Shown in pieces: positions 94 to 23,345 of a DNA stretch of 64,000 nucleotides. The notes beneath the pieces are model-generated. The model was not told the DNA's origin. It saw only the letters and a program-made list of their open reading frames with translations, and searched no databases. Position 1 is the stretch's first letter. Every line of letters starts with the position of its first letter. The stretch is taken from NCBI GenBank assembly GCA_963765765.1, contig CAVXYC010000026.1:1-64000 (forward strand), given 5' to 3'. The translations under genes and the position numbers were made by a program. Source of the DNA: an uncultured Chloroflexia bacterium. GTDB taxonomy: Bacteria; Chloroflexota; UBA6077; JACCZL01.

Positions 94-900
94 ATGGCTG
101 ACTTCTTCGACCGCCTCGTATCGAGCGCGCTCGGCGAGCGGCGAGTTGTCGCGCCGTCGAGCCGCTCGGTATTCGAGTCGATGCCTGAAGCAAACACTCG
201 AATTCTGACCCCGCTGCCGGACGAGATCGACGAGGAGCTGCCTTCCGAGCATGCGTCCCGCTCGTATCCTCGGGATCGTCCGCCGCCTCAGTCGTCTGGG
301 CCCGAAATCGCGTTCGACGATGGCCGGCCAGTGCAACCGAGACCCCGGCAGACTCGCGGACTTGAGCCCGCTCTGCCCTTCGAGCAAGCGGTCGAGACCA
401 CGTCGCCCGAGTGGTCGAGTGGCCCAGCGTCCCAGACGCGCCTGGACACGCAGCGTCCATCTCCTCCCGAGCCCAAGCCGCGCCGTGACCCACAGCGCGC
501 ATCTCCTCACCAGCCCGAGCCGGTCCTGTCCGAGATCTCGTTCCACGGAGAGGAGCGAGTACCTGCCCGGACATTGTTTCCGGAGCGTGCGTCCGATCTA
601 TCGCGCATGTTTCCCGGTGACCCCACGCCGCCTCCGGGACACAACGAACCGCGCGGGGAGCGTCCCGTGGAGGTTGTCCGACGCTCGACCACGATTCCCA
701 TTCAGTCGAGCCAGACTCCGCCTGCCCAGGTCCCCGATATCGAGACCGTAGAGACCACTATCCGCGTCTCCATCGGCCGGATCGATGTGCGTGCCTCTAC
801 TCCGGTGGCCGAGACGCCGCGCCCGCGACCGGCGCGCCCGACTCCGCGTACCACGCTCGATTCCTATCTCGAGCGCGCTTCCAGACGGGGCCAACGTTGA
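94..900 (+). CDS. Pro-rich eCIS-associated hypothetical protein
   Basis: ATG at 94 (MADFFDRLV..), AAGGAGG upstream. Long Pro/Arg-rich disordered middle. C-terminal 'TIRVSIGRIDVRA...TLDSYLER' resembles proteins usually found just upstream of DUF4255 in eCIS loci. Stop overlaps the next start. Confidence 0.6.
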   Translation: MADFFDRLVSSALGERRVVAPSSRSVFESMPEANTRILTPLPDEIDEELPSEHASRSYPRDRPPPQSSGPEIAFDDGRPVQPRPRQTRGLEPALPFEQAVETTSPEWSSGPASQTRLDTQRPSPPEPKPRRDPQRASPHQPEPVLSEISFHGEERVPARTLFPERASDLSRMFPGDPTPPPGHNEPRGERPVEVVRRSTTIPIQSSQTPPAQVPDIETVETTIRVSIGRIDVRASTPVAETPRPRPARPTPRTTLDSYLERASRRGQR

Positions 901-2194
901 GCAATTACCTGGCCATCGCTGGGGTCACAGCCACGCTCGTGCAATTGCTGCAGGAGGCCCTACGCTCGACTTCAACGGAGCGCAGGTCTCGGCCGGTCGG
1001 CCTGACGCGGACGCGGGACCCAATGCCGATCCTGCCATCCGGGTGTTTCTGTACCGAGTCGAACCCAATGCCGATTGGCGAAACGACGATCTGCCGACGC
1101 GAAACGGCGATGGCGCCGTCATGCAACGCCCGCAAGCGGCCCTGACGCTCCAATACCTGATCTCATTTATTGGCAACGAGGCCGAATATGCGCCGCAGCG
1201 GCTCCTGGGGTCGGCCGTGCGGACGCTGCACACGCATCCGTACCTGACCCGCGAAGAGATCGGGCGGATGGTGCAGGGCGCACTGGATGAGGATCCTAAT
1301 CACCCGCTTGGGCGCGTCGACCTGGCCGAGCAGCCTGACATCGTGCGGTTCATGCCGCTCACGCTGTCCGTGGAAGATCTCTCGAACCTTTGGTCGTCGT
1401 TCTTTCAGGCCGAGTGCCGTCTGTCAGTCGCGTATCAGGCGGCGGTCGTGCTGCTTACTCCGGATGTTTCGCCGGTGCGCGCGCTGCCCGTGCGCGATCG
1501 GCGCCTGTTCGTCTCGACGATTTTGCGTCCTCGAATCGACCGCGTTATTCCCGTCGAAGGTGAAGATATCCCGCTTCTGCCGGGCTCAGTTGTGCGCATC
1601 AGCGGCAGTCAGCTGCGAGGCGACGAGAGCACGATCGTTCGGTTCGGCGAAGCAAGCGTTACACCTCCGTCCGCGGCAATCGCCGCCGATCGCATCGAGG
1701 TAGCGGTCCCGGATGCCGTTCGCGCCGGCGCTGTGGGCCTCCGAGTCGAGCACCGGCGGGCAATGGGCGAGCCGCCCGAGCTCCGACTAGCCGGCCAGTC
1801 GAATGTCGTACCAGTCGTGGTGCATCCGCGTATCCGACCGGATGGCGGCGGCCATCTCGTTTCGATTTCCGACGTAACGAACGATCCAGACGGCAATCGT
1901 TCCGGAGTTATCGATGTGACCGTGGATCCACCGGTCGGCTTGCGTCAGCAAGTCGCCGTGCTGCTTAACGCGCTGGGCGCCGCGGGAGAGTCGTTCTCCT
2001 TCTTTGACGATCGACGAGACTCGCCTGGAGCGCCGGAGGTCACCAACACGCTCGACGTGGCCTTCACGGGCCTGCCCGCTGGTGACTATCTCGTGCGAGT
2101 GCAGGTGGACGGCGCGGAAAGTCCGCTCGACGTGGAGACCGCCCCGGGGCCCGCTCAAGGGACGTACACAGCGCCCAGGGTGACCGTTCCATGA
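897..2194 (+). CDS. DUF4255 / Pvc16-Afp16-like cap (tail terminator) protein with C-terminal IPT/Ig-like extension; frameshift near 961
   Basis: N-terminus MSNYLAIAGVTATLVQLL joins the 785..2194 frame 'VFLYRVEPNADWRN...LTLQYLIS...QRLLGSAVRTLH...LSNLWSSF...RLSVAYQAAVV'. These are DUF4255 hallmark motifs. They are followed by beta-rich 'VRISGSQL..IVRFG' and 'GDYLVRVQVDGAES'. Confidence 0.85.
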
Positions 2195-4123
2195 GCGGGA
2201 GCTGGGTGGAGGCGAACCAGCGCTACACGGCGGCTTGCATACGTCGGGTTACGGCTTTCCTGGTCTACGGACCCTCCGCGGACGTCCGCGAGATTGACAC
2301 TGAGCTTCGTGAGTGCGAAGCGGCGATGGATCGGCCGCCGGCCCTTATTGCTCTGCGCGATGCGTTCGGCCTTTCTGGATTCGAGCAGGACCTGCTGACG
2401 CTCTGCGCTGGCGTTGCACTGGACAATGGCGTACGTCGAGCCCTGGCAGAAGGTCGCGGCGAAGACTCGCGACATTCCGCACCAACGTTTGGGCTGGCGC
2501 TCGCGGTCCTTCCCAATGCCCACTGGCGGGCACTCACGCCGGCCTCGCCGCTTAGACGCTGGGGCCTCGTGGAGAGCGGACCGGGGGCGGTTATCACCGA
2601 GTGCCCACTGAGTGTAAGCGAGCGCGTGCTTCACTATATTGCCGGGATCCACTTCGTTGACGAGTCGCTTGGGATATCGGGGACCGAGGCAGCTCCCGAG
2701 CTGACCGAGGGCCAGATAGAGGTGGCACGAGGAGCAGTTGCCAGCATCGCCCGCATCCAGCGTGGGCGAGCTCCGGCTGATCCAGCTTTATGCTCCAGGA
2801 CGTGACGCCGGGCGCGGTGTCGCCGCCGCCATTGCTCAGTCGATTGGATTAACCGCCGCGATGCTACAGCCGGAAGACGTCCCGTCTGCCACTGTGGACC
2901 GGCTGGCGTTCGCCCGCAAGGTGGAGCGTGAGGCGGTGCTTGCACATCTCCTACCGGTACTGGATTGCCTTGGCACCGAGGGCGATCAGCTCAGGCCGGC
3001 TGCGCGTTTCTCGGACGAGATCGCCGGGCCGTTGATCGTAATTTCCACGCACCCGCTGGAGCTTTCACGCGAGGACGTTCGATTCTCTATCCCATCCGCC
3101 ACGACGGACGAGCGGTTGGAGGCCTGGACGGCTGCCCTGGGGCCGATGCGCGATCGACTGAATGGCCAGACTCGCCAGATCGCTGAGCTTTTTCATCTCG
3201 ACCCGACGGCCATTCGAGCGACCGCCGCGGAATTCTCTTCGCGCGTGGGTGAGCATTCTGGCGATGCGGGATCGCTGCTCTGGGAGCTAAGTCGTGCCCG
3301 CGCCCGACCGCGACTCGAGCACCTGACCGAGAGAGTGACCACCTCGGTGAGCTGGGACATGCTAGTCCTGCCTGAAGCCCAGGCTCAGATGGTTCGCGAG
3401 ATCGCCGCGCACGCCCGCTGGCGCGGGCGAGTCTATCGAGAATGGGGGTTCGGCCATGGGAACGCTCGTGGCCTCGGGATCTCTGCTCTCTTCTCCGGTC
3501 CAAGTGGCACAGGCAAGAGCATGACTGCTGAGGTTCTTGCCTGCGACCTTGGCCTTGACCTGTATCGGATCGATCTGAGCCGCGTGGTGAGCAAGTACAT
3601 CGGTGAAACGGAGAGGAACCTCGGCACCGTATTCGACGAGGCCGAAGGGGCTGGGGCGATCCTCCTCTTCGACGAGGCAGATGCCCTCTTCGGGAAGCGG
3701 AGCGAGGTGAAGGACTCCCACGATCGCTATGCAAACCTCGAGATCAGCTACCTACTCCAGCGGATGGAGGCTTATGACGGCCTGGCCATCCTCACCACAA
3801 ACCAGCGAAGCGCGCTCGATCCGGCATTTCTACGCCGCATTCGGTTCGTAGTCCAGTTCCCGTTTCCTGACGCGGCGGCGCGAGCCGAGATCTGGAAACG
3901 CACATTTCCCAGGGAGGCGCCCACCGACGGGCTGGACTACGAGCGTCTCTCCGGGCTGAACGTCGCCGGCGGAAACATCCGCAACATGGCGTTGAACGCC
4001 GCTTTCCACGCGGCGGCCACTGGCTCGCCTGTGCGGATGGAGCACGTCCTGCTGGCTGCTCGCGCCGAGTACGCGAAGCTCGAGCGCCCGCTTCCCGAAG
4101 CGGAGGTGCGCGGATGGCGATGA
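2191..4123 (+). CDS. AAA+ ATPase (Afp15/Pvc15-like); frameshift near 2760
   Basis: N-terminal winged-helix-like 'LRDAFGLSGFEQDLLTLCAGVALD..PTFGLAL..ASPLRRWGLV'. Walker A GPSGTGKS, 'DLSRVVSKYIGETERNL', Walker B ILLFDEAD, 'DSHDRYAN', second region of homology 'TTN..LDPAFLRR'. Confidence 0.92.
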
Positions 4124-4383
4124 AGCGATCCGTCTCCGTCGAATTGGCTATAGAGCAGGTCACCGTGGAGGGCGTCGGCCCGCGAAATGGTTTCGCCCTG
4201 AAGCTGGCACTGCAGCGTGAGCTGGCACGACTTGTCCGCGAGCGGGGCGTACCCCAGGGCTGGGATCACGAGAGATCCGGTCAGGTCATCGACATTCCGT
4301 CGCTCCAGTGGGACGGTCGTGGCGGCGAGACGGGCCTGGCTGCGGCGCTCGCCGGTGAGCTCTACAAGGAGTTTGACCGGTGA
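4120..4383 (+). CDS. Small eCIS accessory hypothetical protein
   Basis: 87-aa ORF translationally coupled on both sides (ATGA and GTGA overlaps). Motif 'VELAIEQVTVEG...LALQRELARL...LAAALAGELY'. Confidence 0.7.
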   Translation: MKRSVSVELAIEQVTVEGVGPRNGFALKLALQRELARLVRERGVPQGWDHERSGQVIDIPSLQWDGRGGETGLAAALAGELYKEFDR

Positions 4384-7300: not shown

Positions 7301-9330
7301 CTACGCGACCAGCTTGCCCGAATTGTCCAGGTGGTCCAGTCGGTCATCGATGCGATTGGCGACATCGCTCGCGGCGTCCTAGAAGGCGCCATCGCGAAGG
7401 TGGAAAGCGTTCTCGGCAGCCTTCTGCCCATCGCCATAGACTTGCTGGCGCGGCTCCTCGGACTGGGCAACGTTGGCGCCCGGGTGAAGGAGATCGTTGA
7501 GCAGATTCGGGCGATGGTGGACAAGGCGGTCGATGCGCTTATTCAGCGCACCGTGGCGCTGTTCAAGGGGGGCGGGAAGGGGGTTGCTGCGCCTGGGACC
7601 GACGCCGGGACCGACACCACGATGGTCGCCGACGCAGGCGTCCCGTCAGCCGAAGAAGCCGACAGCGATACGGTGACAGAGACCTTCCGTGTCCCTGGCG
7701 AGGAGCACATTCTGCGCGCGGTGGTTGCGGGTGATGAGGCCGTTCCTGAGATGGCCAGCGGCGAGTTCCACGGACTCGTTAAGAGGGTGACTCAGCTCAC
7801 GGACGCTCTTGACGCGAAGTATAGAAATCCGAAGGACACGGACCTATACGTCGGGGACACTCGAGCCGCGGAGCTCAAGGTGGAGTTCAGGACGATAGTT
7901 CAAATGGCGTCGGACCTTGTGATGACCCTCGGTGCGGCAAAGGCTCCACCTTCAGCCAGTGAGGAGGAAAAGAAAGCGGCGGAGAAGAAGGAGCGGAAGA
8001 TCGTCGCTGATGGGTTTGTAGCACTGCGACACAAGTTTGAGGGTCTCGACCTCGTAGAAGAACTTGACCTGACTAAGCTCAGCCCTGGCCACGGACCAAA
8101 GCCGCTCGGAATGGCCTCATGGGGCCGCAGTTGGGGTTTCCAGGTCAACCCGTTGTCCGTCGCATCGCTAGGGAAAGGGCAGGGCGCGAGCGGACCCGTT
8201 CCAGGATGGAAAATTTTGCCCTTCTACGAACGGGGACACCTCGTGGCTAATTCCCTCGGCGGCCCAGGTGGAGACGAGAACCTTGTGCCGATGTCGGGGG
8301 CGACCAATCGGAGGAAGCCGGCATCCAAAAAATGGAAGACAGTCTTCGCTTCGCGCTCGACCAGATGGTCAAAAAGCCTGACGTGTACAACTTCGAGAAC
8401 GGACAGTACGAATTCGACTATCGAGGAGTCGTCACCGACTACTGGGAAGCACCCACGCTCCAGGAGGATCTCGATGAACATGGAGTCGCGTTGCCACTTT
8501 CCGGTTCAAACGCTGTTCTTGTTTGCGAGCACTGGCGGTGCGTCGAAGGGCATCAGTGACCAGCAGATTCTCGCGTGCATTCAGCCGCCGAGATCGGCCT
8601 CGATCCGTCCGCGCTGGCTGATCTGACGCAGCGGTTAGCGACGTGGGCCCTATTCCGTGACGACATCGCCCAACTACGGGCCGAGATGCGCGAGTCCATC
8701 GACGCGTTGGCAGGGGAGGAAGAGGACCAGCTCGACTTGCGAGTACGGAAAAGGCGCAAGATGCCGCGGCCCAGGAGGCTGGCGCCATTCTGGAAGCGCT
8801 AGACGTCGGAGTATGGACAAGTCCAAGAATTCAGAGGGCGCATTCTGCGTCTTTCAGATCCCGCGCCATCGGAGATTCACGCGACGATTGCCATGGTCGT
8901 CGCCCAGGCTTCCCGAGATTCTGCGCGTGCCGATCTGAACACCGCACAGGGTGAGCTCAGGTCAGCTCAAGCCGAGTTAGAGGCGGCAGCGGCCAGTCTA
9001 CCCGCCGAAACGGATAGCAGCTCCGTAGCAGGCCAGGCATTGCAGGCTGCGCTTGATAGGGTCTCCGTCGCTGAGACGACGGTCAACGATGCTCGGAAGC
9101 GATATGTCGATGCCCGTGAGCTGCTCACGGCCGTGGAAGCGGGAGTTGACGTCGTCAAACTCGCCAGCAACGTTCGCCGTCATGCTCGCTTTCCGATTCC
9201 TTCCCGCAAAACATCAAGGCTTACGCGACAGTCGAGAAGGAGCCTGAAGTGGGGCGAGGCCAGCTGGAGACCCTACGCAGGGAATCAAAGCTGATGTCTC
9301 CACACGGTGATGGTCCGGAATGGGTGGACT
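4380..9330 (+). CDS. Giant DUF4157 (eCIS core domain) effector: DUF4157 + acidic/Ala linker + tape-measure-like helical region + His-Me endonuclease-like toxin domain; several frameshifts, 3' end approximate
   Basis: Joined ORFs 4380-5096, 4912-6693, 6557-8626, 8332-8559, 8575-8802 and 8893-9294. DUF4157 'LPYRDRLEERFGRPLDQLKVF...AHEVAHALQ' (HExxH near 4674). 'ESWWDRAVSFVK' and a hydrophobic helical repeat region. Nuclease motif 'YERGHLVANSLGGPG..ENLVPMS..TN' at 8225-8310. Confidence 0.78.
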
Positions 9331-9402
9331 GATGGTCAACTGTACACGCGCGAGAGTGTTACCCAGCCAACTGCGGCGAATCCGGTCCAGTGGTAGGGAG
9401 CA

Positions 9403-10059
9403 TCTTCGACCTCAAGCCCGCTTTCCCCACCGGTCTTCAAGGGCGCCCTGATCGCGGCAGATCCCCTGCGGCCGCTGTCGAGCGTGGTTGTCTTCCAATA
9501 CAACCCCGAAACCATGACGCGCACGCTCACCGCACGGACGACGGGCGGTGAGGCCGGCTCGGGGCCGCTGCGGATCTCAGGGCCGCCGGAGGAGACGCTT
9601 AAGCTGGCGATCGAGATCGACGCTACCGACCAGCTCGAGTCCGGCGATCCGATTGCCTCCGCTCTGGGCATCGCGCCGGCTCTGGCTGCGCTGGAGCTGC
9701 TGCTCTACCCGAGCTCGGGCGTCGTCATCGCAAACGAGGTGCTCGCCCGAGCAGGAGTTATTGAGATCATTCCAATGGAAGCGCCGCTCACCTTGCTTGT
9801 CTGGGGCGCGCGGCGCATCCTGCCTGTCCGTGTCACGGACTTCTCGATCGCTGAAGAAGCGTTCGACACGGCGCTCAACCCTATCCGCGCCAAGGTGGAT
9901 CTCGGGCTACGGGTGGTCAGCTACTACGACTCAGGACTCCTGAGCGCCTCGGGCGCGCTATCTCTGGCGGCGCATATCGCCCGTGAGGTCCTGGGCACCA
10001 TGAACACGGCCGAATCCGTGGCTGCCGCGGTTCGCTCCGTCACCGGGCAGGGAGGGTAA
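9403..10059 (+). CDS. Afp7/Pvc7-like CIS tube-initiator-type protein (start codon uncertain)
   Basis: 'SPPVFKGALI..VVVFQYNPETMTRTL...PPEETLKLAIEIDATD...LTLLVWGARRILPVRVTDFSIAEEAFDTALNPIRAKVDLGLRV'. This is typical of the gene preceding LysM in eCIS loci. The frame is open from the TAG at 9394-9396. Confidence 0.8.
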   Translation, partial: SSTSSPLSPPVFKGALIAADPLRPLSSVVVFQYNPETMTRTLTARTTGGEAGSGPLRISGPPEETLKLAIEIDATDQLESGDPIASALGIAPALAALELLLYPSSGVVIANEVLARAGVIEIIPMEAPLTLLVWGARRILPVRVTDFSIAEEAFDTALNPIRAKVDLGLRVVSYYDSGLLSASGALSLAAHIAREVLGTMNTAESVAAAVRSVTGQGG

Positions 10060-10061: not shown

Positions 10062-10364
10062 ATGGCGTTTGGCCCTAACAGTCGCTACTACGATGTCGAG
10101 ACCGCTGAGCTAACCGTCATTGACGCGAACGGTCAGGAGCGGACGATCGCGTATAAGCGTCGACGGATCATCCCCTCCTACCAGGATCAGCCTTCCATGG
10201 TCGAGCATCGGGTCTCGGAGGGCGAACGGCTCGACAACCTGACCGCTCGCTACACGGGTGACCCAACGTTGTTCTGGATGATCTGCGACGCCAACGAGGT
10301 CATTCATCCCGGCGAGCTGGAAACCGTGGGCCGAGTCGTTCGTATAGCGATGGCGAGGCGATAG
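10062..10364 (+). CDS. LysM-domain baseplate (tail X-like) protein
   Basis: 'SRYY...EHRVSEGERLDNLTARYTGDPTLFWMICDAN' LysM signature. RBS GGAGG upstream. Confidence 0.88.
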   Translation: MAFGPNSRYYDVETAELTVIDANGQERTIAYKRRRIIPSYQDQPSMVEHRVSEGERLDNLTARYTGDPTLFWMICDANEVIHPGELETVGRVVRIAMARR

Positions 10365-12303: not shown

Positions 12304-12338
12304 CGATGATGCCTCAAGACCTTGTATGCCTGACCGAT

Positions 12339-12453: not shown

Positions 12454-12474
12454 TCAGTTGTCGGGAGGTCGTTC

Positions 12475-12840: not shown

Positions 12841-15351
12841 CGATCTATTTCTGCTGCAATGAGAATCGACGCGAGGCGGTTCGCGCCAGTGGTTTGCTGA
12901 ACGGCATCGATTTCCTCGAAGTCGTTGACGGGCCAGGGGTGCCCGAAGCGGATCGCCAGCGCCTTCTCCAGGTGCACATGATCAACCCGCCGGATGCGAC
13001 GCTCCTGGCGATTGGCCTACGCAACGTCGTGATCAGCGGAGGTGTGCGGGTCAAGAATATTCGCGCAACTGGGATCAGCTGGACCGGGCACGTTCTGACG
13101 GTCCGTGTGGATCGCCCCGGTGATTTCTCGCAATACACGCTGGGTTTACGGACGCTAGCCGGTGCCACGCTGGCCGGGATGGACGAGCGGCTCTCGGAGA
13201 TCGAGTTCAGCTTCAAGATAGAGTGCCCGTCTGACTTCGACTGTGCCGACCAGTCGATCTGTCCTCCCGAAATCATGGATGTGCCCGAGATCGACTACCT
13301 GGCTCGGGACTACGAGAGCTTCCGCCAGCTCATGCTCGATCGACTGGCCATGATCTCTCCGGACTGGCGGGAGCGTAACCCGTCCGATCTCGGCGTTGTC
13401 GCTGGTGGAGGCGCTCGCCTACAGCGCCGACCACCTGAGCTATCAGCTCGACGCGGCCGCGATGGAATCCACGCTCGCAAGCGCCCGATCGCGTATCTCC
13501 GCGCGGCGGCACGCCCGGCTCGTCGATTACCGCCCCAGTGACGGTAGTAATGCTCGGACCTGGGTGCAGATCCGAGTCGCGTCGGGGCAGTCGGGAGTCC
13601 TGGTGCCGGCCGGTACGCAGCTTCTGACACGTGTCCCGAACCAGGGGGCGCGGGTGGAGCCGGATTCATCCGCGTATCGGGAGGCCCTGGAGCGCGGACC
13701 AGTGATCTTCGAAACGATGCATGACGTGGTCCTGGATGCGTCATGCAACGAGATCGAGCTCTACACCTGGGGCGACGAGGAATGCTGCCTGGAAGCTGGC
13801 GCGCTGACAGCCACACTGCGTGGCCATCCGGCGATAGTGCCAGGCGATGTCCTGCTTCTGAAGGAGCGCCTTGGTCCCAGAACGGGCAACCCGGCCGATG
13901 CGGACCCCACGCACCGCCACGCCGTGCGGATTACCCACGTAGTGCCCACCGAGGACCTGCTGGGTGGCCAGTTCGAGGAGCCAAAGCACAGCGATCCGGT
14001 GCCGGTCACGGAGATTACCTGGCACCAGGGAGACATCCTGCCGTTCTCACTGTGTATCTCGGCACGCGATGGTGAAGCGCTGCATCAGAACGTTAGCGTC
14101 GCGCTCGGAAACATCGTCCTGGCCGATCACGGCCGTACGCTCCGAGTCGAGCCGGCCGGTGAAGTGCCGGAGCCGGATCCCCGACTGGCACCGCCGGCTA
14201 TCGCACAAGCGTGTGAGCCCGCCGAATCTCGATCGCGCCCGGCGCGTTTCGCGCTTCAAGTGCCGGAACCCGATCTGACCATGACCGGCACGATTGGCCG
14301 CGCTCTGACCGGCCAGGACCCACGCGTGTGGGCGCCATTCGATCCGGTGGCGGCAGCCGCCTCCGCTCGGCCGACACGGTGGGACTCACGTGTCACGCTT
14401 CCGTCGGTGTCCCTGGACGATGACGATGGACGCCACTGGCGACCTGTCAGGGACCTGCTTGCCAGCGGCCCCTTTCACCCTGAGCTCGTGGCCGAGGTTG
14501 GTAACGATAGCGTCGCTCAGCTTCGGTTCGGCGATGGTGAATACGGACTGCGGCCGCGTGCTGCTCTGGTTCTGGACATGACGTTTCGCCGGGGCAATGG
14601 GCCCTCCGGAAACATCGGAGCGGACTCGTTGGCGCACATCGTCACCACGGATTCGCGTATCGAGTCGGTGCTCAACCCGCTGCCTGCAATTGGCGGATCA
14701 GGCGCCGAGGCCATCGATCGAACCCGGCAGGATGCGCCGCAAGCATTCCGCGTCCAGGAGCGGGCCGTTACTCCGGAGGACTATGCAGTCATGGCAGAGC
14801 GGCATCCCGAGGTCCAGCGGGCCGTGGCGACCGAGCGGTACACGGGAAGCTGGTACACCATCTTCTTAACGGTAGACCGACTGAACGGCGTCCCCGTGGA
14901 TGCGGTGTTCGAGGCCGAGCTCCGAGCGTTTCTCGAGCGTTTTCGAATGGCCGGCCACGATCTGGAGATCGATGGACCGCGCTTCGTCGCCCTAGAGATC
15001 ACGCTTCGTGTATGCGTCAAGCCCGACTACTACCGATCTGATGTTGCTCGGGCGATACTCGACGTCCTGGGCCGATCGCGGCAGCCCGATGGGACGACCG
15101 CGTTCTTCCATCCCGACAACTTCACCTTCGGCGAGTCGGTCACCCTCAGCGCTGTGCTGGCCGCTGCTCAATCCGTGGAGGGTGTCCAGTTCGTTCAGCC
15201 GGTGACCTTCCGTCGGATGGGTGACGATCGCTCGGACGCCCTGCGTGTCGGTGAGATCACCATGGGTCGTCTCGAGATCGCGCGCCTGGACAACGACCCA
15301 AGCTTTGTCGAGCGGGGCACGCTCAAGCTCGAGATGGACGGTGGGCGATGA
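12837..15351 (+). CDS. Putative baseplate assembly protein (baseplate J-like, Afp11 type); frameshift near 13398
   Basis: 'NGIDFLEV', 'IDYLARDYESFRQLMLDRL...DLG..LVEALAY.AD.LSYQLD', 'LRFGDGEYG', 'QERAVTPEDYA', 'FFHPDNFTFG'. Confidence 0.88.
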
Positions 15352-18046
15352 CTACGGGTCACCCACCTGGCTGCGACTGCTGCACCGGGCTCGCCGACAA
15401 GACTCCGCTGGAGCTGGACAATCGCCCGGGGCTGCCTCAGATCGCGTACCGAGCAGGCACATACGGTCACTTCCGCGCCAGCATGCTGGCCGGGCTCACC
15501 CGCGCCTCGCGTCCGGCCCTTGCCGGTCTGAAAACACGCGACCCAAGCGATTTCTCGGTCGGTCTGATTGACGCGTGGGCGGTGGCCGCCGATGTCCTCA
15601 CGTTTTACACGGAGCGGATCGCCAACGAGCACTACCTCGGTACGGCGACCGAGCGTCGCTCCATCGGCGACATGGTCGCCCTGATTGGCTACCAGCTGAA
15701 ACCTGGCGTGGCCGCACAAGCCTGGCTCGCGTTCACGCTCGAGACTGCGCCAGGCTCCCCACCGGCATCCGCGATTCCGCTGGGGGCGAAGGTCCAGACG
15801 CTACCCGGTCCGAATGAAGATTCCGCAGACGTTCGAGACGGTCGAGCCGCTGGAGGCCGTGGCGGCGTGGAACCGACCCAGCGCTACGAGTGCTGGAACC
15901 GCATACGCCGCGCACTGGCGAGCAGCAGGTACGTCTCGCCGGTGTCGGGCTCAATCTTCGTCGTGGCGATCAGCTCATCTTCGTCGCCGACGACTGGTCC
16001 ACCTCCGATCCGGCGAATCGTTGGCAGCGGGTTCGTGTGACGCGTGTATCCCAGATCCCTGAAGAGCAGATCACCGTGGTGGACTTCTCACCTGGTCTGG
16101 CTGGCCTCGATTTCGTTGACGGAGTGGGTGTCCGGGTCTTTGCAGTGCGTGGAACGGCGGCTCTTTTCGGCTTCAGCGCGCCGGACCCCAGGCTCTTCGA
16201 TCCGGAGATCCGGGGTGAGCTGGGAACGGCGCTCAACAATGACGAGACCGAGTGGAACTTCGCCGGAGTGGTCTTCAGCGAGATCTTTCTCGACAGCATT
16301 TACGAGGGGATCGAACCGGGCAGCTGGGTGGTGCTCACGAATGCTGGCGATCTGCTGAACCCGCTGGAAGAGCTGGCGGCCGTCGTCTCGGTGCGCGAGG
16401 CTGCGAAATCCGCGTACGCATTGAGCGCTCGCGTGTCGGTTCTCGAGCTCGATCGCACGGACGCGGTCCTGACTGCCTTCGCCGGAACCAGCACGCGCTC
16501 CTCGATTGTGCATCTACGCAGCGAGGAGCTCACGCTTGCTCCAAACCCTATCGTCGAGCCGTTGTACGGCCAGCACATTCCGTTGGCGGAGCCGGTGCCC
16601 GCCAGCCCCGCGGTCAGACGAATCTTGATCCGAGGTAAGCGCCCACGCGCGGCGGAGTCGGCCGACACGCCATTCGACGATCCTCCGCCGTGGCCCGCCG
16701 GCGAGACGCCTCGAGTCCTGAGCATCGAGGACGAGTTGGAGGGACTGCCGGGCAAAGTCCGCTGGACGCTCCGGCCCGAAAGTGGTGACGACTTCACGGC
16801 CATCGGTCCGCCGGATGCCCTGACCTATGTGCCATCGCTCGCGCCCGATGAGCTGGTGGGCGAGGTTGCGCTGGTCGAATCCTCGCTGGGCGAGAGCCAG
16901 ACGGATGTCCTCACACTCACCGCGCCACTCACCAACGTGTACGACCGTCAGGCCGATACGCCCATTGAGATCTACGGAAACGTGGCGGATGCGACGCACG
17001 GCGAGACGGTTGCGCAAGAGATCCTGGGTAGTGGCGACGGAGCACGACCGTTCCAACGCTTCACGCTACGCAAGCCGCCGCTCACCTACGTGCCAGCCCC
17101 TACGGTCACGGGTGGCAGCTCCACCCTGGAGATCCGAGTCAACGGCCTACGTTGGCATGAGGCCGCCACGCTGTTCGGCACCGAGAAGCGCGACCGCGTG
17201 TACGTGGCCTCCACCGGCGATGACGGGAAGACCACTGTGATGTTCGGAGATGGTGAGGCCGGCGCGCGGCTACCCACGGGCATCGACAACATCGTGGCCT
17301 CGTACCGCGCGGGGCTGGGGCTGGCTGGCATGGCTCGAGCCGATCAGCTCACGCTGCCGATGACGCGCCCGCTCGGCCTCAAGGCCGTGACCAATCCACT
17401 TCCCGCGAGCGGCGCGGCGGACCCGCAAGCGGCCGAGGATGCGCGCGAGAACGCTCCTCGAAGTGTGCTTACGCTCGGCCGCGTTGTCTCGCTCCAGGAT
17501 TACGCTGATTTCGCCAGCGACTACGCGGGCGTTGGCAAGGCGACTGCGACCTGGACGTGGGACGGGGCCCGGCGGGGCGTCGTTCTTACCGTGGCCGCCG
17601 CCGATGGCAAGCCTCTCCCCGCCGGCTCCACGCTGTTATCCAACCTGCGCGCCAGTCTGTTGAGCATTGGCAGCACACGCGTCGCCCTCGAGATTCGCGA
17701 CTATCAGCCGGCCTACTTCCGGCTGCTTGCCACCCTTCGAGTAGCGGCGGACTACCAGGCGGATATCGTTCGGGACGCCGTCTCGGCGCGGATCCTGAGC
17801 TTGTATTCATTCGACGCTCGGACATTCGGTCAGGGAGTCGGATTGAGCGAGATGGCCTCGATCATCCACTCCATCGCGGGTGTAGAGGCAGTGCGCATTG
17901 ACCAGCTACACCTCGACACCGATCTGCCGTCCGCGAGTGTCTTTCTGCCGGCCGCGGTACCGATCCCGGGCGCCCCGCCGGGCGCCCCCGCCGCTGAGAT
18001 CCTGACGGTCGCTCCGGACGGCGTGGTGTTGGAGGTCGGCTGGTGA
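15348..18046 (+). CDS. Second baseplate J-like assembly protein; frameshifts near 15815 and 15885
   Basis: 'NRPGLPQIAYRAGT', 'IDAWAVAADVLTFYTERIANEHYLGTATERRS', 'GNVADATHGET', 'VMFGDGEAGARLPTG', 'LGRVVSLQDYADFA', 'FDARTFGQ'. Confidence 0.88.
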
Positions 18047-20095
18047 AGGTAGCGACAGACCACCTCTACAACCTTCTGCCGGCCGTCTATCGCGAGCGCG
18101 ACGCGGCGAACGGGGAGGTGCTGCGCCAGTACCTCGAGGTGCTCACCGACGAGCTGGCCGTAGTGGCCGACGGGGTCGATCAGCTCTACGACGATCTCTT
18201 CGTCGAGACAGCGGCACCATGGGTATTGCCCTACATCGCCGAGCTCATTGGACTGCATGGCCTGGCCAGCGGTACGGGTGGCGGACTCACACCCCGGGCC
18301 GAGGTCGCTAACACCATTGCTTACCGGCGACGGAAGGGCACGGCCGCGGTACTGGAGCAGCTCGCTCGCGACATGACCGGCTGGCCGGCAAGAGCAGTCG
18401 AGTACTTCGAGCTGCTGGCGTCCTGTCAGCATATGAACCACGTGCGTCCCAACAACCAGGTGACGGTGAACGTTCGGGACGCAAACCGACTCGAGTTTGT
18501 AGGTACAGCGTTCGAACGCCGCTTGAGTGGGTTACAGGGGGACCTTGTCCATCTAGCCGAGATGCGCCGAATTCGCGAGCCGCCGCGGTCGATACAACAT
18601 CCCGAACGTAGGCATCTTCCTCTGGCGTCTGCGGGCCTATCCATTGACGCAAGTCGAAACGTTGCCCGCGACGCCCGGAGATCAGCACCGATTCCTGCTC
18701 AATCGGCTCGGAGCGGCTGTCCAGCTCTTTAGCTCGCCATTGTCCGAGAGCGAGATCACGCATCTGGCCGAGCCGATCAACGTCCCGATGCCGCTCAGCC
18801 GCCGACTCCTTTCGACGCAGCTTCATTCCTACTTCGGGCCCGGACTCTCGCTGCACATCGACGGCATCCCCATCGATCTGGTGGACGTGTGCGATCTGAG
18901 CGACGTGCCCGACGGCACGGGCGACTGGAATCACTCTCCGACGCCAGCTGGGCCGCATGCAGCTTGATCCGGTGCTGGGGAGAGATAGCGTTCGGGGGAC
19001 CGCAGGAAACGCCGCCACGGGTCTCGTTCCACTACGGCTTCAGCGCCGATCATGGGCGGCGGGGAATACGAGCGGATATCCAGCTTCGCGCTGATCGAAG
19101 GCCCAGTTGAGACGGTAGCTCGCGATGGCAGCGAAGGGCACGTCACCATTCAGGCGGCGCTCGACAGTCTGGCGGCGTCCAGCGGAACGGTTGAGATCGC
19201 TGATAACGGCCGCTACGAAGGGATTCTCACGATCACGGCAGATGCGACGGCTATGGAGGTGCGCGCGGCGGATAGTCGCATGCCTGTGGTCGTGCTCGAC
19301 TCCGACCTCGAGGTGACGCTGTCGAATGGCGCCGAGGTCTCGCTGAACGGACTCATCATCGCCGGCGCCGCTATCCGTGTATCCGGCTCGGGGCGACTGA
19401 TCCTCCGCCACTGCACCCTGGTGCCCGGATTGACGCTCAATGCTGACGGGTCTCCGACGCAGCCTGACGCGCCGAGTCTACTCGTGGAGACTGGCGACCT
19501 GGTGGTCTCGGTCGAGCGCTCCATCCAGGGCGGAGTCCGCGCGCACGTGGACTCGCAGATAGCGCTGGTGGATTGCATTGTGGATGCCGGCGAAGGGGGC
19601 GTCGCCTTAGCCTCCGCGCCCGACGCGTCCGGGCCAGCGGGCACCCTCACGCTCGACGAGTGCACTGTGTTCGGGTTGGTCCACGCGAGAGTAATGGAGC
19701 GCGCCTCCAACTGCATCTTCATGGCACGTGTGCCTGAAGGTGAGGCGGCACGCTGGCCGGGTCCAGTACTCGTCGACCGACGGCAGGCGGGATGCGTGCG
19801 CTTCTCCTACCTGCCCGCCCGCTCGCGCACGCCACGACGGTTCGAGTGCGTACCGGGCACGGACGGCGACGCCGAGGAGCTTCGGCCCGTGTTCACCTCC
19901 ACTCGCTATGGCGATCCAGCCTATGGACAGCTCGATCGACGCACGCCCGATGACGTCTGGCGCGGCGCGGATGACGAGTCCGAGATGGGGGTGTTTCATC
20001 ACCTGCGCCAGCCTCTGCGTGAGGCGTATCTGACACACCGACTTCAGGAGTACCTCCGCTTCGGTCTCGAGGCGGGGCTCTTTTTCGCAACGTAG
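18043..20095 (+). CDS. Phage tail protein (P2 gpI-like / Afp12-like baseplate wedge); several frameshifts
   Basis: 'LYNLLPAVYRERD...DDLFVETAAPWVLPYIAELIG...RAEVANTIAYRRRKGT...TGWPARAVEYF'. Later 'GGGEYER', 'RRQAGCVRFSYLP' and 'P.FTSTRYGDPAYGQL...GADDESEMGVF...L.EYLRFGLEAG'. Confidence 0.82.
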
Positions 20096-20113: not shown

Positions 20114-23100
20114 ATGAGAGGTGATTTCAGCCGACGGACCTTCGATCCGCGCAAGCACTACAGCGCGGTTCTTCAAGAGCAGGGCCGGCTGCTGACCGAC
20201 GCGGACCTCGAGGAGGAGCACCACATTCTCTCGAGCCAGCTCGAAAGGACCGCGGCAGACGTCATCGGCGCTTGCGGCGGCCCCATCGGCTCGGCTGGCT
20301 TCGCCGTGACCTCGCCGGATGGCGTCAACCTGGCGCTCTCGGCGGGTCGCTACTACGTTGCCGGCATGCTGCTCGTCAACGAGACGGCTGTCAACTACAC
20401 GCAGCAGCCGGATCGGATCACGGCGGATGTGGACTGGCCGCCCCCGCCCGGCCGCTACGTTATTGGCCTCGATGTCTGGGGGCGTCTCATCACCGCGCTG
20501 GACGATCCGTCTATTCGCGATGTCGCCCTGGGCGGTCCGACGACGTCTGCCCGAGAGAAGACCGTCTGGCAGGCACGCCATGTGGCCGTGGACGCTGCCT
20601 GGACGTGCGGGCAACCACTGCCTCCTCTCAACGACACCACCGGCAGCATGGCCGCTCGGGCCGAACCTGAGGCGGCGTTACCAACACCATGTCTGGTGCC
20701 TCCGCTCGCCGGCTGACACGGGCCTCGAGAACCAGTTCTATCGGGTGGAAGTCTTCGCGACTGGCGCGGCGGTCAATCTTGCCAGCGCGTCGATACTGCC
20801 GATCCTGAGTATCCCCGCGGGCAGTCTCAACCAGGTGGTGGTGTCGAATCAGGCAGCGGCGACACTGAGTGTCGGCGAATCGCTGGAGATCATTCGCACC
20901 GGCGCCGGTAGCGACCCGCTCGACGCAACCTTCGTCCAGGTGGCGAGTAAGTCCGGAGTCACTATCACGCTGAGCGGGCTGCTTCCGGAGCTCCAGGCGG
21001 GCGACGCCCCCGCGCTTCGCCGCGTTAATGCCACGGCGGTGATCTCTCGAGAGAACGGGTCGGTGGTCACCGGGATCGATCGGATTGACGGACGAGAGGT
21101 CACGGTTCGCGATCTCGGTCCTGATGAGGTACTCGGCTTCGCTCCCGGCCACTGGGTCGAGCTGACCGACGATCGGATCGAACTGGAGCATCGGCCGCGC
21201 CAGCTTCGACAGATCGAGGCTATCGACACGGATACACTTGTCGTAACGTTGCGCACCGCGGCCGCGCCGCTGGCGGGGACGGCCGATGGGGTGGACGCTG
21301 ATCGCCATCCCAAACTGCGCCGATGGGACGCTGCCCGGGGGATCGTATTTCGGGCCGACGGCTCTGCCTGGCTGCACCTGGAGCGGGGTATCCAGGTTCG
21401 CTTCTCCACCGGGCAGTACGTGAGCGGTGATTACTGGCACTTCCCGGCGCGCGCGGCGATTGTCGACGCTGCCTCTGGGAACATCGAATGGCCTCAGGCC
21501 GGTGGAGCCCCGGCGCTTCTTCCGCCGCACGGTGTTGCGCACCACGTCTGTCCCATCGCCGTCGTTGACGTCACTCAGAACGCCAGCGGCGTTCGCAGCG
21601 CTGAGGTGATCAGCGATTGCCGAAACCTCTTCCCGCCCGTTACGCAGCTCACGACGCTGATGTACGTAGGAGGCGACGGCCAGGAGGGGAGGCCTGCTGG
21701 CGCCGGGCTGGCGCCGCTTCCAGCGCCGCTTACCGCGCGCGTCGCCAATGGCTCTCATCCCGTGCAGGGTGCGCGGGTCGAGTTTCGCATCACTCAGGGC
21801 ACCGGCCGCCTTAACGGATCGGTTGGCCCGATCGTCCGCACGAGCGACGCCAATGGCATCGTCTCCGCCACGTGGGCCCTTGACGTGAACGCTCCCGCTC
21901 AGACGGCTGAGGCGCGATTGCTCACGCCCGCGGGCACGGCCATCGCGCACCAGCTTCTCCGCTTCCACGCAACACTGGACACGGACACGACCGTGGAGAG
22001 CGGTCGGTGTTGCTGCGTCACCATTGGTCCCGATGGCGATTACCCCACGCTCGAAGAAGCCCTCCAGGATCTGCTGCAGAAAGGTGAGCGGGACATCTGC
22101 CTGTGTCTCCTTCCCGGGGATCATGTGTCCGACCGTCTGGAGCTGAACGGGGTGGAGGACGAGAAGTCGCTCAACCTATCGATCGTGGGCTGCGGGAGGG
22201 CCACTCGGGTCCAGTCCACTAGCGGCATTCTGATGAACCACGGATCATCGCTCCGCCTTACGGATTTCGACCTGACGCTGACGGAGAACGCGACCCTCCA
22301 CACGATCAGTGTGGACGATGTGACGCTGGAAGGGATGCATATTCGTGGCATGCCGCCCAAAGTCGGAGTGGTGAGAATTCATGGCGCGTCCGCCGTGCGC
22401 GTGAGCGACTGCACGCTCGAAGCTCGCGCTGAAGGCGAATTCGAGCGATTCCGAGCCTTGTTCGCGGGTGTTGGGCCACTCGAGAGCGTGTGGCAAGTAG
22501 CTGGCACCGGCGAAAACGCGCTTCGAGTTCGCAGCGCGGCTCGCGATATCGACGGACTCTCCGCTACCGCTCGTCGCGCCCTGGTGCGTGAGATCGACCG
22601 AAGGATTGCCGGCGAGGCTGCCCGACTCTCGGCGAACGTCGCCGCAAGACTGTCCCACCTGTCTGCCACGATCGGTGCCAAACGCGACCCGGCGGTCGTA
22701 GCGGCGGCAGTCAACGACCTCAAGGCCGCCGTGGCGCAGCAGTCCGACATCGTCGCGTTGGAGATCGGCGCGCCCGATGATCTCCAGGAGAAGCTGACCG
22801 ACCCAGCCAATGTCACACCGTGCACGATCACCATCGTGGACAACAAGATTTACGGGAACATCAGTCTGTACGGCGTAGCCGGTGATGGCGCGCTCAACGT
22901 CGACGAGCGTGCGCTCCTGGATGCGAGGCTCAAGAATCGAGCGGTCAGCACCGGCATGGCCGGCACTGTGCACATCCGCGACAACCGCCTCAATCGGCTC
23001 CTGCTGTCCTCGGGGATGAACGAAGCCCTGCGGCAGCTCGCCCTTGGCCAGGTGACTTCCCTGGCGACGCTCTACGAGAGCTTCCACGTCACCAACAACG

Positions 23101-23345
23101 TCATCGATGGAGCCAATGGGCAATTAGCGGCGCTCCACGCCGTGCTCACGTCGAATGACTACACCCTCGCCGCGGTACCCGCGCCCGCCGGTGCAGTGAT
23201 CGTGCAAGAGGTCTACGCCGACACCGCGATCTACACAGGCAACCACGGAGCCATCACCATCGGAGCCGGGGCGCAGCCGGTAATCATCGAGCAAACGGTG
23301 CGTGCCTTCGCCTCCGCTGCGAACCTCGAGGTCAACATTCAATAG
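20114..23345 (+). CDS. DUF6519-domain tail-fibre-like protein (Afp13 position) with Ig-like and beta-helix C-terminus; frameshift near 20712
   Basis: 'MRGDFSRRTFDPRKHYSAVLQEQGRLLTDAD', 'TGLENQFYRVEV', 'SRENGSVV', 'HPKLRRWD', 'LERGIQVRF..G.Y.SGDYW.FPAR', 'DCRNLFPP'. Then a Big_1-like 'GGDGQ..PL.ARV..G..PV.GA.V.F' region and pectin-lyase-like repeats. Confidence 0.85.

Follow-up and report, generated by a model that had tools for sequence, protein, structure and literature searches.

Probable downstream part of a phage-tail-like contractile injection system operon in a likely Chloroflexota genome

Results

Positions 94-23345 (+) of the window, by which we mean the whole 64,000-nt stretch of DNA that was analysed, hold a single, compact cluster of contractile injection system (CIS/eCIS) genes, all on the same strand. 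We read it, with a probability of roughly 0.7, as the downstream portion, and the larger one, of an operon encoding a phage-tail-like contractile injection system in a probable Chloroflexota genome. Gene content, order and homology to relatives are clear: families assigned by Pfam, NCBIfam and PHROGs profile searches include at least 11 core CIS parts, among them an Afp16-type cap and an Afp15-type ATPase, which bears out an earlier reading of the region as an eCIS. In the cluster, the cap and the AAA+ ATPase are accompanied by a DUF4157 protein, the tube initiator, a LysM-like protein, the hub and the spike with its PAAR-like tip, by the wedge components (gp25, a pair of J-like proteins and a gpI-like protein) and by a fibre with DUF6519 (Table 1). 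A preliminary description had counted about 14 same-strand, mostly coupled genes; the shared strand stands, but the count is 16 once frame-split fragments are joined. Translational coupling is a fair term, since at eight junctions the stop codon of one gene and the start of the next share 1-10 nt, and at two they are separated by 2 nt.

Table 1. Genes of the injection system cluster, with their positions in the window and main supporting matches.
Position	Strand	Feature	Size	Evidence or remark
94..900	+	Conserved accessory gene, Pro/Ser/Glu-rich	268 aa	Directly 5' of cap gene
897..2194	+	Tube/sheath cap (terminator), Pvc16/Afp16/DUF4255 type	~431 aa	Pvc16_N E 7.8e-39
2191..4123	+	AAA+ ATPase, Afp15 type	~643 aa	WHD E 3.8e-15 (frame 1), AAA E 5.4e-25 (frame 2)
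4114..4383	+	Small conserved protein	89 aa from ATG 4114	Positionally kept in L001-L004
4380..8802	+	Putative Tme-like cargo / tape-measure-related effector	~1470 aa	eCIS_core/DUF4157 E 3.4e-9
8893..9294	+	Small ORF, uncertain gene	133 aa	Weak coiled-coil-like matches
9406..10059	+	Tube initiator (Afp7/gp48-like, CIS_tube domain)		CIS_tube E 2.5e-4 to 3.2e-4, below Pfam cut-off
10062..10364	+	LysM-like baseplate protein	100 aa	Matched in 47/80 loci
10367..11480	+	Baseplate hub (gpD/gp27/VgrG-N-like)	~370 aa	Phage_GPD E 0.0026, below cut-off
11477..11983	+	Spike (gp5/gpV OB-fold + beta-helix)	168 aa	Phage_base_V E 2.6e-25
11983..12303	+	PAAR-like spike tip (DUF4280/PAAR)	106 aa	DUF4280 1.6e-4, PAAR_motif 5.6e-4, both below cut-off
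12337..12840	+	Baseplate wedge, gp25/gpW-like	167 aa	GPW_gp25 E 5.4e-16; phrog_43 3.4e-13
12837..15351	+	Baseplate J/gp6-like wedge no. 1	~837 aa	TIGR02243 E 3.5e-66
15348..18046	+	Baseplate J/gp6-like wedge no. 2	~899 aa	TIGR02243 E 5.4e-47; phrog_219
18043..20095	+	gpI/Afp12-like wedge, one gene	~684 aa	tail_TIGR02242 3.9e-8, Phage_Mu_Gp48 5e-5 (N-terminal part)
20114..23345	+	Fibre with N-terminal DUF6519 (eBAP5) baseplate-anchoring domain	~1077 aa	DUF6519 3e-29, 2.9e-24

Cap, ATPase and accessory genes

Three syntenic loci of near-identical architecture, from a Thermoflexaceae MAG (L001), Microbacterium (L003) and Streptomyces (L004), guided the joining of several split genes. The first gene had previously been included in the cap. 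It is instead a separate gene, whose counterpart precedes the cap in L001: residues 101-362 of the ORF at 3879-4964 of that locus align to window positions 85-897 with 35% identity in tblastn. The C-terminal ~45 aa of its product are also matched in five further loci; no Pfam, NCBIfam or PHROG match was found, and in the Atlas it falls into 'hypothetical protein' clusters only. The cap itself begins at TTG 897, overlapping the stop of this gene, and is carried from frame 3 to frame 2 by one break near 960, with residues 1-~22 ('SNYLAIAGVTATL...') in frame 3. The L001 cap aligns to 729-962 (frame 3) and then to 968-2191 (frame 2) at 74%, and DNA alignment identifies the break as a 1-nt deletion relative to L001. 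Full-length cap relatives measure 425-433 aa, and one that is 89% identical (P0004) is an intact 433-aa protein.

The ATPase combines an N-terminal winged-helix domain with a Cdc48-like AAA module and has its reading frame shifted once, from frame 1 to frame 2, at ~2765-2778. Both domains lie in a single 643-aa ORF in L001, which aligns to window 1600-2778 (frame 1) and 2765-4117 (frame 2). The protein matches phrog_10401 ATPase at 2.1e-63, its best solved relatives being Cdc48/p97. The small protein that follows is 42-56% identical to its counterparts in L001-L004 and is matched in 23 of 80 loci, with no family match.

A Tme-like cargo gene

The product of 4380-8802, the largest ORF in the cluster, appears from its sequence to be built like the Streptomyces davawensis protein Tme, with DUF4157, a tape-measure-like hydrophobic core and an EndA-type nuclease. 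This likeness is drawn from an HExxH motif, tape-measure PHROGs, hydrophobic windows, an Endonuclea_NS_2 match, the size of the ORF and the position of the gene. The motif, HEVAH, is seen in the translation of the N-terminal DUF4157 domain; PHROG tape-measure families match both middle pieces, down to 1.1e-7; hydrophobic 19-residue windows lie at 6379-7468; and the C-terminus matches Endonuclea_NS_2 with E 1.2e-5 (26 bits, 1 bit short of the curated cut-off of 27). The previous label of DUF4157 effector was correct for the N-terminal domain, but took in neither the long tape-measure-like part nor the terminal nuclease of what is one ~1470-aa gene. Its relatives are single ORFs of 1507 (L001), 1472 (L003) and 1393 aa (L004), and mapping against L001 and L003 places at least five frame breaks in it, at ~4979-5008, ~6612 (a 1-nt insertion by DNA alignment), ~8305-8317, ~8520 and ~8580. 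The small ORF at 8893-9294 shows weak matches only (phrog_9228 tape measure, 6.3e-4; TPR_MLP1_2, 0.023), with no counterpart in L001-L004.

Baseplate and fibre

The tube initiator is 87% identical to that of L001 and 83% to that of L003, and is matched in 49 of 80 loci. At the start position of its relatives it has TCG (9406-9408, after GGAG) in place of a usual start codon, the first of which is GTG 9484. The adjacent small protein had been described as LysM. A confident AlphaFold2 model from a 39-sequence alignment (pLDDT 87.7) bears a weak resemblance to LysM-like proteins in the baseplates of solved CIS and to genuine LysM domains, its best Foldseek matches being 8kea, 7b5h_AK, 9gtp_M, 7aeb_M, 5iv5_BF and LysM domains at E 0.014-0.5, with none at E <= 0.001. 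Pfam LysM is absent even at E <= 1; phrog_7145, a baseplate wedge family, matches at 1.3e-5.

The hub is 84% identical to that of L001 and weakly matches the VgrG structure 9rce_F (9.6e-4). One break at ~11346-11353, a 1-nt insertion in a G/C run by DNA alignment, moves it from frame 2 to frame 3, in which its final ~35 aa are encoded (11346-11453, from comparison with L001, L003 and L004). The spike is 82% identical to its L001 counterpart and matches VgrG-related NCBIfam models at 4e-10, and the PAAR-like tip is matched in 34 of 80 loci with identity up to 69%.

Both J-like wedge genes are split. The first, whose ATG at 12837 overlaps the gp25 stop, has at least one break within 13354-13538 (frame 3 to frame 1), with TIGR02243 positions 1-35 in frame 3 (nt ~13293-13397) and the remainder to 658 in frame 1; it also matches Baseplate_J (2.2e-6). 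The second has at least one break within 15818-16037 (frame 3 to frame 2), with TIGR02243 positions 8-107 in frame 3 (6.9e-18) and 343-658 in frame 2, and no PDB sequence match was found for it. For the next gene, the earlier assignment as P2-gpI-like holds as to family, but its extent was divided between 18043-18732 and an unnamed ORF at 19052-20095. A 696-aa relative (P0366) aligns over 18043-20092 through frames 1, 2, 1 and 2, giving one gene with three breaks (~18557-18573, ~18940-18973, ~19052-19056). When 19052-20092 was used as query, 2903 relatives were found, mostly of 660-730 aa, the matching region being their C-terminal half. The fibre gene has at least one break within 20594-20713 (frame 2 to frame 3), with DUF6519 positions 1-177 in frame 2 and 316-514 in frame 3; its C-terminal ~580 aa have no family match. 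DUF6519 has been named eBAP5, a domain described as anchoring the fibre (PMC12923769).

Assembly error or decay

The preliminary description had mentioned frameshift-corrected proteins; the frames are indeed broken, but more extensively than this conveyed, with at least 14 breaks in eight of the 16 cluster genes. We consider these breaks to be probably, in the main, single-base indel errors of assembly rather than decay. Sequencing indels are the likelier cause because hom, recQ and a NarL-type response regulator gene, housekeeping genes outside the cluster in the same window, are frame-split alike, and because no in-frame stop was seen in frames backed by homology. Where DNA alignment resolved a break, in three cases, it proved to be a 1-nt indel within a short G/C run. 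An unlikely alternative is that the cluster is a decaying, non-functional relic, its breaks being real mutations in a once-active CIS. Three breaks within ~500 nt in the gpI-like gene and three within ~280 nt in the nuclease domain, together with a higher density inside the cluster, would also fit local decay, as would the lack of a usual start codon where the relatives of the tube initiator begin. At least 14 breaks per 23 kb (5 per 23 kb on split-profile evidence alone), against 3 definite and about 3-5 probable per 41 kb outside, put the apparent in-cluster density at about 2- to 4-fold that elsewhere in the window. However, none of these lesions is a nonsense codon, all pieces are open and stay 63-84% identical to relatives after each break, several breaks are paired so that the frame is restored, and true breakage of both hom, an amino-acid biosynthesis gene, and recQ would be unlikely for a living genome.

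Sheath, tube and host

Profile searches found no sheath or gp19 tube family in any of 112 + strand frames within 1-24600. Of 62 related loci with at least 4.5 kb of upstream sequence, 60 have sheath and tube directly 5' of the cap, with a median of 3,656 nt from sheath start to cap start; the missing genes should therefore lie about 2-3 kb 5' of window base 1, the operon being cut by the window start. The L001 sheath as query returned, among the best 120 matches, no protein from a contig of 92,029 nt, the length on record for proteins of the window, and the sheath of this genome could be fragmented, lower-ranked or on another contig. The L001 sheath matches Cis2 of the S. coelicolor CIS (8bky, 8bl4; PMC10066040) over its whole length at E ~1e-71, and its C-terminal domains match the Pvc2, Afp2 and AlgoCIS sheaths at 1e-35 to 1e-40.

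The host is probably a member of the Chloroflexota, as had been guessed and as is now thinly supported. A single housekeeping gene was searched; of its eight listed matches with a named organism, seven come from Chloroflexota, Chloroflexi or Anaerolineae, with identity up to 77%. The closest genomic locus is the Thermoflexaceae MAG, with which, and with three Actinomycetota, the cap groups. The remark that CIS function is little characterised in Chloroflexota needs tempering: published accounts place their clusters in actinobacterial-type CIS groups (PMC10020575, PMC11126660), and the DUF4157/tape-measure-like/nuclease effector type has been characterised in S. davawensis (PMC11126660).

Discussion

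Every structural part of the cluster is homologous to phage tails and the DNA 5' of window base 1 is outside view, yet a myovirus-type prophage tail module in place of a stand-alone injection system is very improbable. The Pvc16-type cap, Afp15-type ATPase, DUF4157 and DUF6519 are described as eCIS markers (PMC8213781, PMC12923769), and no capsid, portal, terminase, integrase or lysis family occurs within the 64 kb. Clusters of the relatives begin with sheath and tube, preceded by non-phage genes, in L001 and L003 those for hemerythrin and beta-helix/GH10 proteins. More remote still is a membrane-anchored type VI secretion system, which has the sheath/tube/hub/spike/PAAR/gp25 logic in common and to which the VgrG-related matches of the spike might point. 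The window has no TssJ/L/M, TssA, TssE-F-G-K set or ClpV, in agreement with the original statement that T6SS membrane genes, like capsid and portal genes, are missing, and the cap, Afp15-type ATPase, tape-measure-like protein and fibre are parts that a canonical T6SS does not have.

CIS biology and the Streptomyces work enable us to propose a model for this injection system. In this model, the baseplate would be built from the hub, the spike with its PAAR-like tip, the LysM-like protein, the tube initiator and the wedge components (gp25, both J-like proteins and the gpI-like protein), and would bear the DUF6519-anchored fibre. Tube and sheath, expected to be encoded just upstream of the window, would polymerise on this baseplate, and the Pvc16-type cap would shut the distal end. 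The AAA+ ATPase may aid assembly or cargo loading. The ~1470-aa protein would occupy the lumen of the tube, attached to the spike and initiator, and be expelled by sheath contraction, upon which its hydrophobic core could enter a membrane and its nuclease act on DNA, as reported for S. davawensis Tme. By analogy, a cytoplasmic particle is plausible, and in Streptomyces the particles act within the cell that makes them; we lean slightly, and tentatively, towards cytoplasmic assembly with action at the cell envelope, with particles acting after release a somewhat less favoured possibility.

Comparison with known systems

The cluster belongs to an already described kind of injection system. It shares its core parts, Afp7 to Afp16 equivalents, with the classical extracellular systems Afp, PVC and AlgoCIS. 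In those, however, cap and ATPase lie at the operon end rather than mid-operon and there are three sheath genes, where relatives of this cluster have one; separate hub and spike genes, two J-like genes and the DUF6519/eBAP5 fibre type also set the present cluster apart.

The closest solved structures are those of S. coelicolor CIS(Sc) and S. lividans SLP, of dbeCIS class IId, described as cytoplasmic, cell-death-linked systems of filamentous bacteria in a class reported to contain Chloroflexi (PMC10066040, PMC10020575, PMC13277306). These accounts describe a like cap, ATPase and DUF4157-linked cargo, and beyond the Cis2 match of the L001 sheath, J no. 1 of the window matches the S. coelicolor CIS baseplate J-like chain 9gtp_1K at 4.6e-11. 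By its locus tags, the S. coelicolor locus differs in that its sheath operon comes after the genes for cap, ATPase and effectors; of the effectors, Sco4256-4258 are described as small single-TM proteins, and Sle1 as being without DUF4157. The account of Casu et al. reports no typical tape measure or fibre, in contrast to the putative fused DUF4157/tape-measure-like/nuclease protein and DUF6519 fibre here.

For the cargo, the nearest parallel is Tme (Nagakubo et al. 2024, PMC11126660). As described there, Tme is longer, at more than 2,200 aa (Tme-C being residues 2030-2247) against ~1470 aa here, and has DRGH, as does L003, where the EndA/NS_2-type domain of the window has ERGH. In the same description, the S. 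davawensis sheath clade spans Actinobacteria, Proteobacteria and Chloroflexota. Both systems place their largest ORF just upstream of the baseplate genes, and both proteins would combine DUF4157 at the N-terminus, a tape-measure-like central part of hydrophobic/coiled character and an EndA-type nuclease at the C-terminus.

Gene content

Profile searches of the long ORFs, and of every stop-to-stop + strand frame of 60 aa or more in 1-24600 (112 frames), placed one dense gene cluster at 94-23345 on the + strand of the window, with backing from NCBIfam and PHROGs. The families recovered by the Pfam, NCBIfam and PHROG profiles are tabulated below, and show the gene list of the preliminary description to be essentially right. 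Once fragments are merged the cluster holds 16 genes, with 8893-9294 a doubtful member. Neighbouring genes share 1-10 nt of start and stop codon sequence at eight junctions, and a gap of 2 nt parts them at two, in essential agreement with its portrayal as translationally coupled.

Table. Cluster genes in their identified order, from the cap (first) to the DUF6519 gene (last), followed by split genes elsewhere in the window.
Feature	Position	Strand	Profile match or identity	Frame breaks
Cap	897-2194	+	Pvc16/DUF4255	~960
ATPase		+	winged-helix domain and AAA module	~2765-2778
DUF4157 protein	4380-8802	+	eCIS_core	~4979-5008, ~6612, ~8305-8317, ~8520, ~8580
Tube initiator	9406-10059	+	CIS_tube-type	
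Hub	10367-11480	+	gpD-like	~11346-11353
Spike		+	gp5/gpV-type	
Spike tip		+	DUF4280/PAAR-like	
gp25		+	gp25 profile	
J1, baseplate-J protein	12837-15351	+	TIGR02243	within 13354-13538
J2, baseplate-J protein	15348-18046	+	TIGR02243	within 15818-16037
gpI-like protein	18043-20095	+	P2 gpI / Mu gp48-like	~18557-18573, ~18940-18973, ~19052-19056
Fibre	20114-23345	+	DUF6519	within 20594-20713
NarL/LuxR-type response regulator	37996-38672	+		split: profile positions 1-48 and 44-209
recQ	38695-40490	+		split: profile positions 5-343 and 353-401
Homoserine dehydrogenase (hom)	42112-43495	-		profile positions 3-89 in one frame, 89-427 in another

The CIS_tube, Phage_GPD, DUF4280/PAAR, Mu gp48 and Endonuclea_NS_2 matches fall below their curated cut-offs. 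Apart from the gpI-like gene, the genes concerned are 60-87% identical to their counterparts in related loci. Those loci end short of the gpI-like gene, which is supported instead by a full-length relative of 696 aa, P0366, spanning window 18043-20092. With 19052-20092 as query, a search of 1.84 billion representative proteins returned 2903 relatives, mostly 660-730 aa long, to whose C-terminal half the query aligns. These lengths, together with the coverage by P0366, indicate that the ORF first described as P2-gpI-like and the unnamed ORF that follows it form one wedge gene of ~684 aa. At the other end of the cluster, 94-900 is a gene separate from the cap, 35% identical to the gene preceding the cap in the Thermoflexaceae MAG locus (L001), and the cap starts at TTG 897. 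Atlas look-ups of 94-897 and 19052-20095 gave unnamed clusters only.

For the 100-aa gene labelled LysM, Pfam gives no LysM match, even with the threshold relaxed to E <= 1. A confident model of its product, built on 39 homologues (pLDDT 87.7), has as its nearest structures by Foldseek small, LysM-like baseplate chains of cyanophage A-1(L), the Anabaena CIS, the S. coelicolor CIS, AlgoCIS and T4, with true LysM domains also among them, all at weak E values of 0.014-0.5 and none reaching 0.001. Judged from this model, the 100-aa baseplate protein is LysM-like at the level of the fold only.

The operational definition of an eCIS given by Geller et al. (PMC8213781) asks for a minimum of 10 core genes, with an eCIS-specific gene among them. 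The window cluster falls within it, containing the Afp16 cap, Afp15 ATPase, tube initiator, hub, spike, tip, gp25, two J proteins, the gpI-like protein (Afp12), a fibre and the tape-measure-like DUF4157 protein. The fibre assignment is supported by the equation of DUF6519 with eBAP5, reported as a baseplate-anchoring domain of eCIS fibres (PMC12923769). The preliminary description had named capsid, portal and terminase genes, or TssJLM and ClpV, as signs of a prophage or T6SS. Family profile searches of the 64-kb window found no head or packaging genes, no T6SS membrane complex and no ClpV, and head/packaging and T6SS genes are also absent upstream of the sheath in L001 and in the Microbacterium locus (L003). 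For an eCIS in the strict sense, whose particles leave the producer and attach to a target by their fibres, the cluster offers a fibre gene, and the same window searches found no lysis gene family. The window cluster is a genuine CIS/eCIS gene cluster with its 5' end cut off by the window.

A terminator and promoter scan 3' of the fibre gene gave counts not above those in shuffled sequence. The first recognisable gene past the cluster, on the opposite strand (24597-25076, -), encodes a bacterial PH domain and SHOCT protein, and the ~1.2 kb separating it from the fibre gene contains short overlapping ORFs without a family match. The sole Rfam match in the 64 kb is a single tRNA-Leu gene at 59691-59775 (+), far enough from the cluster to give no sign of a tRNA-linked island.

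Sheath and tube

No sheath or gp19-type tube family matched any of the 112 + strand frames in 1-24600. One cap-alignment scan of GTDB species-representative genomes returned 80 loci (best cap identity 74%), the window genome not being one of them, and in L001 and L003 the region 5' of the cap encodes a sheath (511-512 aa), a gp19 tube (175-176 aa), a T4_baseplate-like protein and then the homologue of 94-900. In 62 loci the sequence 5' of the cap extends for 4.5 kb or more; of these, 60 have a same-strand upstream sheath homologue and 60 a tube homologue, and none has a sheath downstream of the cap. The sheath start lies a median of 3,656 nt upstream of the cap start (n = 64, range 2,717-5,104). 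As the window cap starts at 897, the spacing in its relatives would place the sheath and tube ~2-3 kb before base 1. The operon is cut by the window start, and these sequence comparisons predict its sheath and tube genes upstream. The proteins of the window are recorded on a contig of 92,029 nt; the 120 best matches to the L001 sheath in a protein search include none from a contig of that length, a result that carries no weight either way. In Microbacterium sp. DT81.1 (L003:628-5739), the sheath gene is immediately preceded by genes for a GH10 glycosidase and three right-handed beta-helix paralogues.

Reading frames

When intact orthologues and profiles are aligned to the window, at least 14 in-gene frame changes emerge in the cluster, those at ~8520 and ~8580 being positioned by eye from translations against L003; a GC-by-codon-position frame plot was too noisy for placing breaks. 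Three are resolved at the DNA level: one base is deleted in the cap, and one is inserted in each of the DUF4157 gene and the hub, in every case within a short G/C run. Outside the cluster, hom, recQ and the NarL-type regulator are also split, which shows that the indel problem is window-wide and not limited to injection-system genes. The profile match is also missing one end in a DUF3179 protein, an HtrA protease, an ABC permease and a binding protein. The genes at 48595-53787 (-) form an operon for an ABC transporter of 2-aminoethylphosphonate type, with two PhnS-like binding proteins, one PhnT2-like ATPase and one PhnU2-like permease; its permease is without the first ~54 profile positions and its second binding protein without the C-terminal half, and both gaps are probably further frame breaks.

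Real decay of the cluster would fit the local piling up of the breaks and their higher apparent density inside it, which on split-profile counts alone is 5 in 23 kb, as against 3 definite and ~3-5 probable in the 41 kb outside; we nevertheless regard decay as unlikely. Errors of assembly are a good deal more probable, because housekeeping genes are hit too, because all fragments remain open with 63-84% identity past the break, because homology-supported frames contain no nonsense codon and because several breaks pair up and restore the frame. Programmed frameshifting was rejected, as the breaks lie within conserved domains, run in both directions and also affect housekeeping genes. In the tube initiator, TCG stands where L001 and L003 have ATG, 5 nt past GGAG (window 9397-9484), and the next usual start, GTG 9484, would drop ~26 conserved residues; the TCG reflects a base error or else genuine loss of the start codon. 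At ~1 indel per 2-5 kb in the assembly, automatic annotation will split or truncate many genes of this contig.

The DUF4157 protein, a putative cargo

The gene first described as a DUF4157 effector does encode DUF4157; it is not a small effector, being a single large ORF of 1507, 1472 and 1393 aa in the three nearest loci whose sequence extends far enough, and these ORFs align onto window 4380-8802. At ~1470 aa it is the largest ORF of the cluster, exceeding the ~1077 aa of the fibre, and one small ORF alone separates it from the tube initiator. Its product begins with the DUF4157 domain (eCIS_core E 3.4e-9), in which HExxH reads HEVAH in translation. Two middle pieces match nine and five PHROG families, of which every one except two is a tape-measure family (best E 1.1e-7), and a crude hydropathy scan, as distinct from a TM predictor, found several 19-residue windows with a Kyte-Doolittle mean of at least 1.6 in nt 6379-7468. 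The C-terminus matches Endonuclea_NS_2 at E 1.2e-5 and 26 bits, against a cut-off of 27, with the domain split by three frame changes; the L003 orthologue reaches 28.2 bits. The candidate nuclease region reads ...ERGHLVANSLGG...ENLVP..., giving the motif ERGH...N...N. A single-sequence model of the L003 nuclease domain (residues 1231-1472) was unusable, at pLDDT 32.7.

Among the 80 loci, many of which end short of this region, the tape-measure-like core occurs only in L001, L003 and the Streptomyces locus (L004), and the nuclease end only in L003. The C-terminal ~300 aa of the large DUF4157 protein differ among these three loci, the window sharing its nuclease end with L003 only. The other ends in L001 and L004 fit a description of C-terminal modules in related effectors as "reconfigurable" (PMC13277306), and Geller et al. 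had earlier noted fusions of DUF4157 to toxins through linkers longer than 1000 aa (PMC8213781). After its large DUF4157 protein L001 encodes another, smaller one of 392 aa (E 1.7e-20; L001:12313-13488), at a site where the window has only a small unrelated ORF.

Host and cap phylogeny

The host genome is probably from Chloroflexota. An intact cystathionine gamma-synthase-family gene at 36663-37850 supplied the housekeeping taxonomy; an organism is named for 8 of the 120 matches listed, and among these matches seven are Chloroflexota, Chloroflexi or Anaerolineae (best 77%, others 52-54%) and one is Thermodesulfobacteriota (51%). The closest genomic cap is that of the Thermoflexaceae MAG (74%), followed by caps from Nanopelagicales (64%), Microbacterium (63%) and Streptomyces (54%), other Chloroflexota caps being at most 44% identical. 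A plasmid collection queried with the cap gave 13 records, all at most 34% identical and useless as a reference for the downstream genes.

The cap tree has 76 rows, the window and 75 of the 80 loci; L064 (in-frame stop) and four loci whose best match is shorter than 300 residues were left out. In this quick, unrooted IQ-TREE reconstruction with SH-aLRT support only, the window, L001 and three Actinomycetota loci form one clade (support 100, stem length 0.69), and all 18 other Chloroflexota caps fall outside it. Being unrooted, the tree does not show the direction of transfer. Composition was rejected as a sign of recent transfer: G+C is 0.649 in 1-23345 and 0.600 in 23346-64000, but at third codon positions the cluster and the other genes have the same G+C (0.710 vs 0.709), so composition shows no sign of recent arrival. 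Amino-acid composition and spacers account for the overall gap, and foreign codon usage does not.

It is possible, with a probability we would put at roughly one in four, that the locus represents a distinct CIS lineage common to a Chloroflexota lineage (the window genome and the Thermoflexaceae MAG) and Actinomycetota, with a cap clade apart from the 18 other Chloroflexota caps sampled and a fused DUF4157/tape-measure/nuclease cargo whose C-terminal module has been swapped between relatives. If so, and if the system is intact, it would extend the Streptomyces-type role, which is directed at the producer and ties DNA release or cell death to multicellular life, to a second, unrelated phylum with many filamentous members, and it would document the cross-phylum spread of a whole machine together with its cargo scaffold.

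Comparison with known systems

Our literature searches on contractile injection systems and Chloroflexi, and on DUF4157, found no experimental study of a Chloroflexota CIS; this locus supplies an almost complete set of parts for one. Chloroflexi are reported among the class IId eCIS (PMC10020575), and Chloroflexota in the S. davawensis sheath clade (PMC11126660). Among solved structures, those of the S. coelicolor CIS come nearest. Cis2 (8bky/8bl4) is the best solved relative of the L001 sheath (E ~1e-71, over the full length), which is indirect evidence on placement in these named groups, and the J-like chain of 9gtp is matched by window J1 at 4.6e-11. PDB sequence searches returned no match for the cap, tube initiator or J2.

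The closest counterpart of the putative cargo is Tme, the tape-measure-related effector of Streptomyces davawensis, described (PMC11126660) as joining DUF4157 to transmembrane and coiled segments that are remotely homologous to tape measures, and these to an EndA-like nuclease bearing DRGH and H-N-N motifs. That study reports Tme to be the largest ORF of its own cluster, just upstream of the baseplate genes, to co-purify with the spike and tube initiator, and to be responsible for extracellular DNA release and sporulation phenotypes. The window protein shares the DUF4157 domain and the tape-measure-like middle, ends in a candidate nuclease domain and is likewise the largest ORF, upstream of the baseplate genes; the motif in its candidate nuclease is ERGH where that of Tme is DRGH. 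The locus ties a probable Chloroflexota CIS to an actinobacterial Tme-type cargo of known function (nuclease, extracellular DNA release, sporulation), and this link provides a concrete hypothesis for what such a system does. The cluster probably belongs to a described actinobacterial-type CIS lineage with Tme-like cargo and is not a new kind of system.
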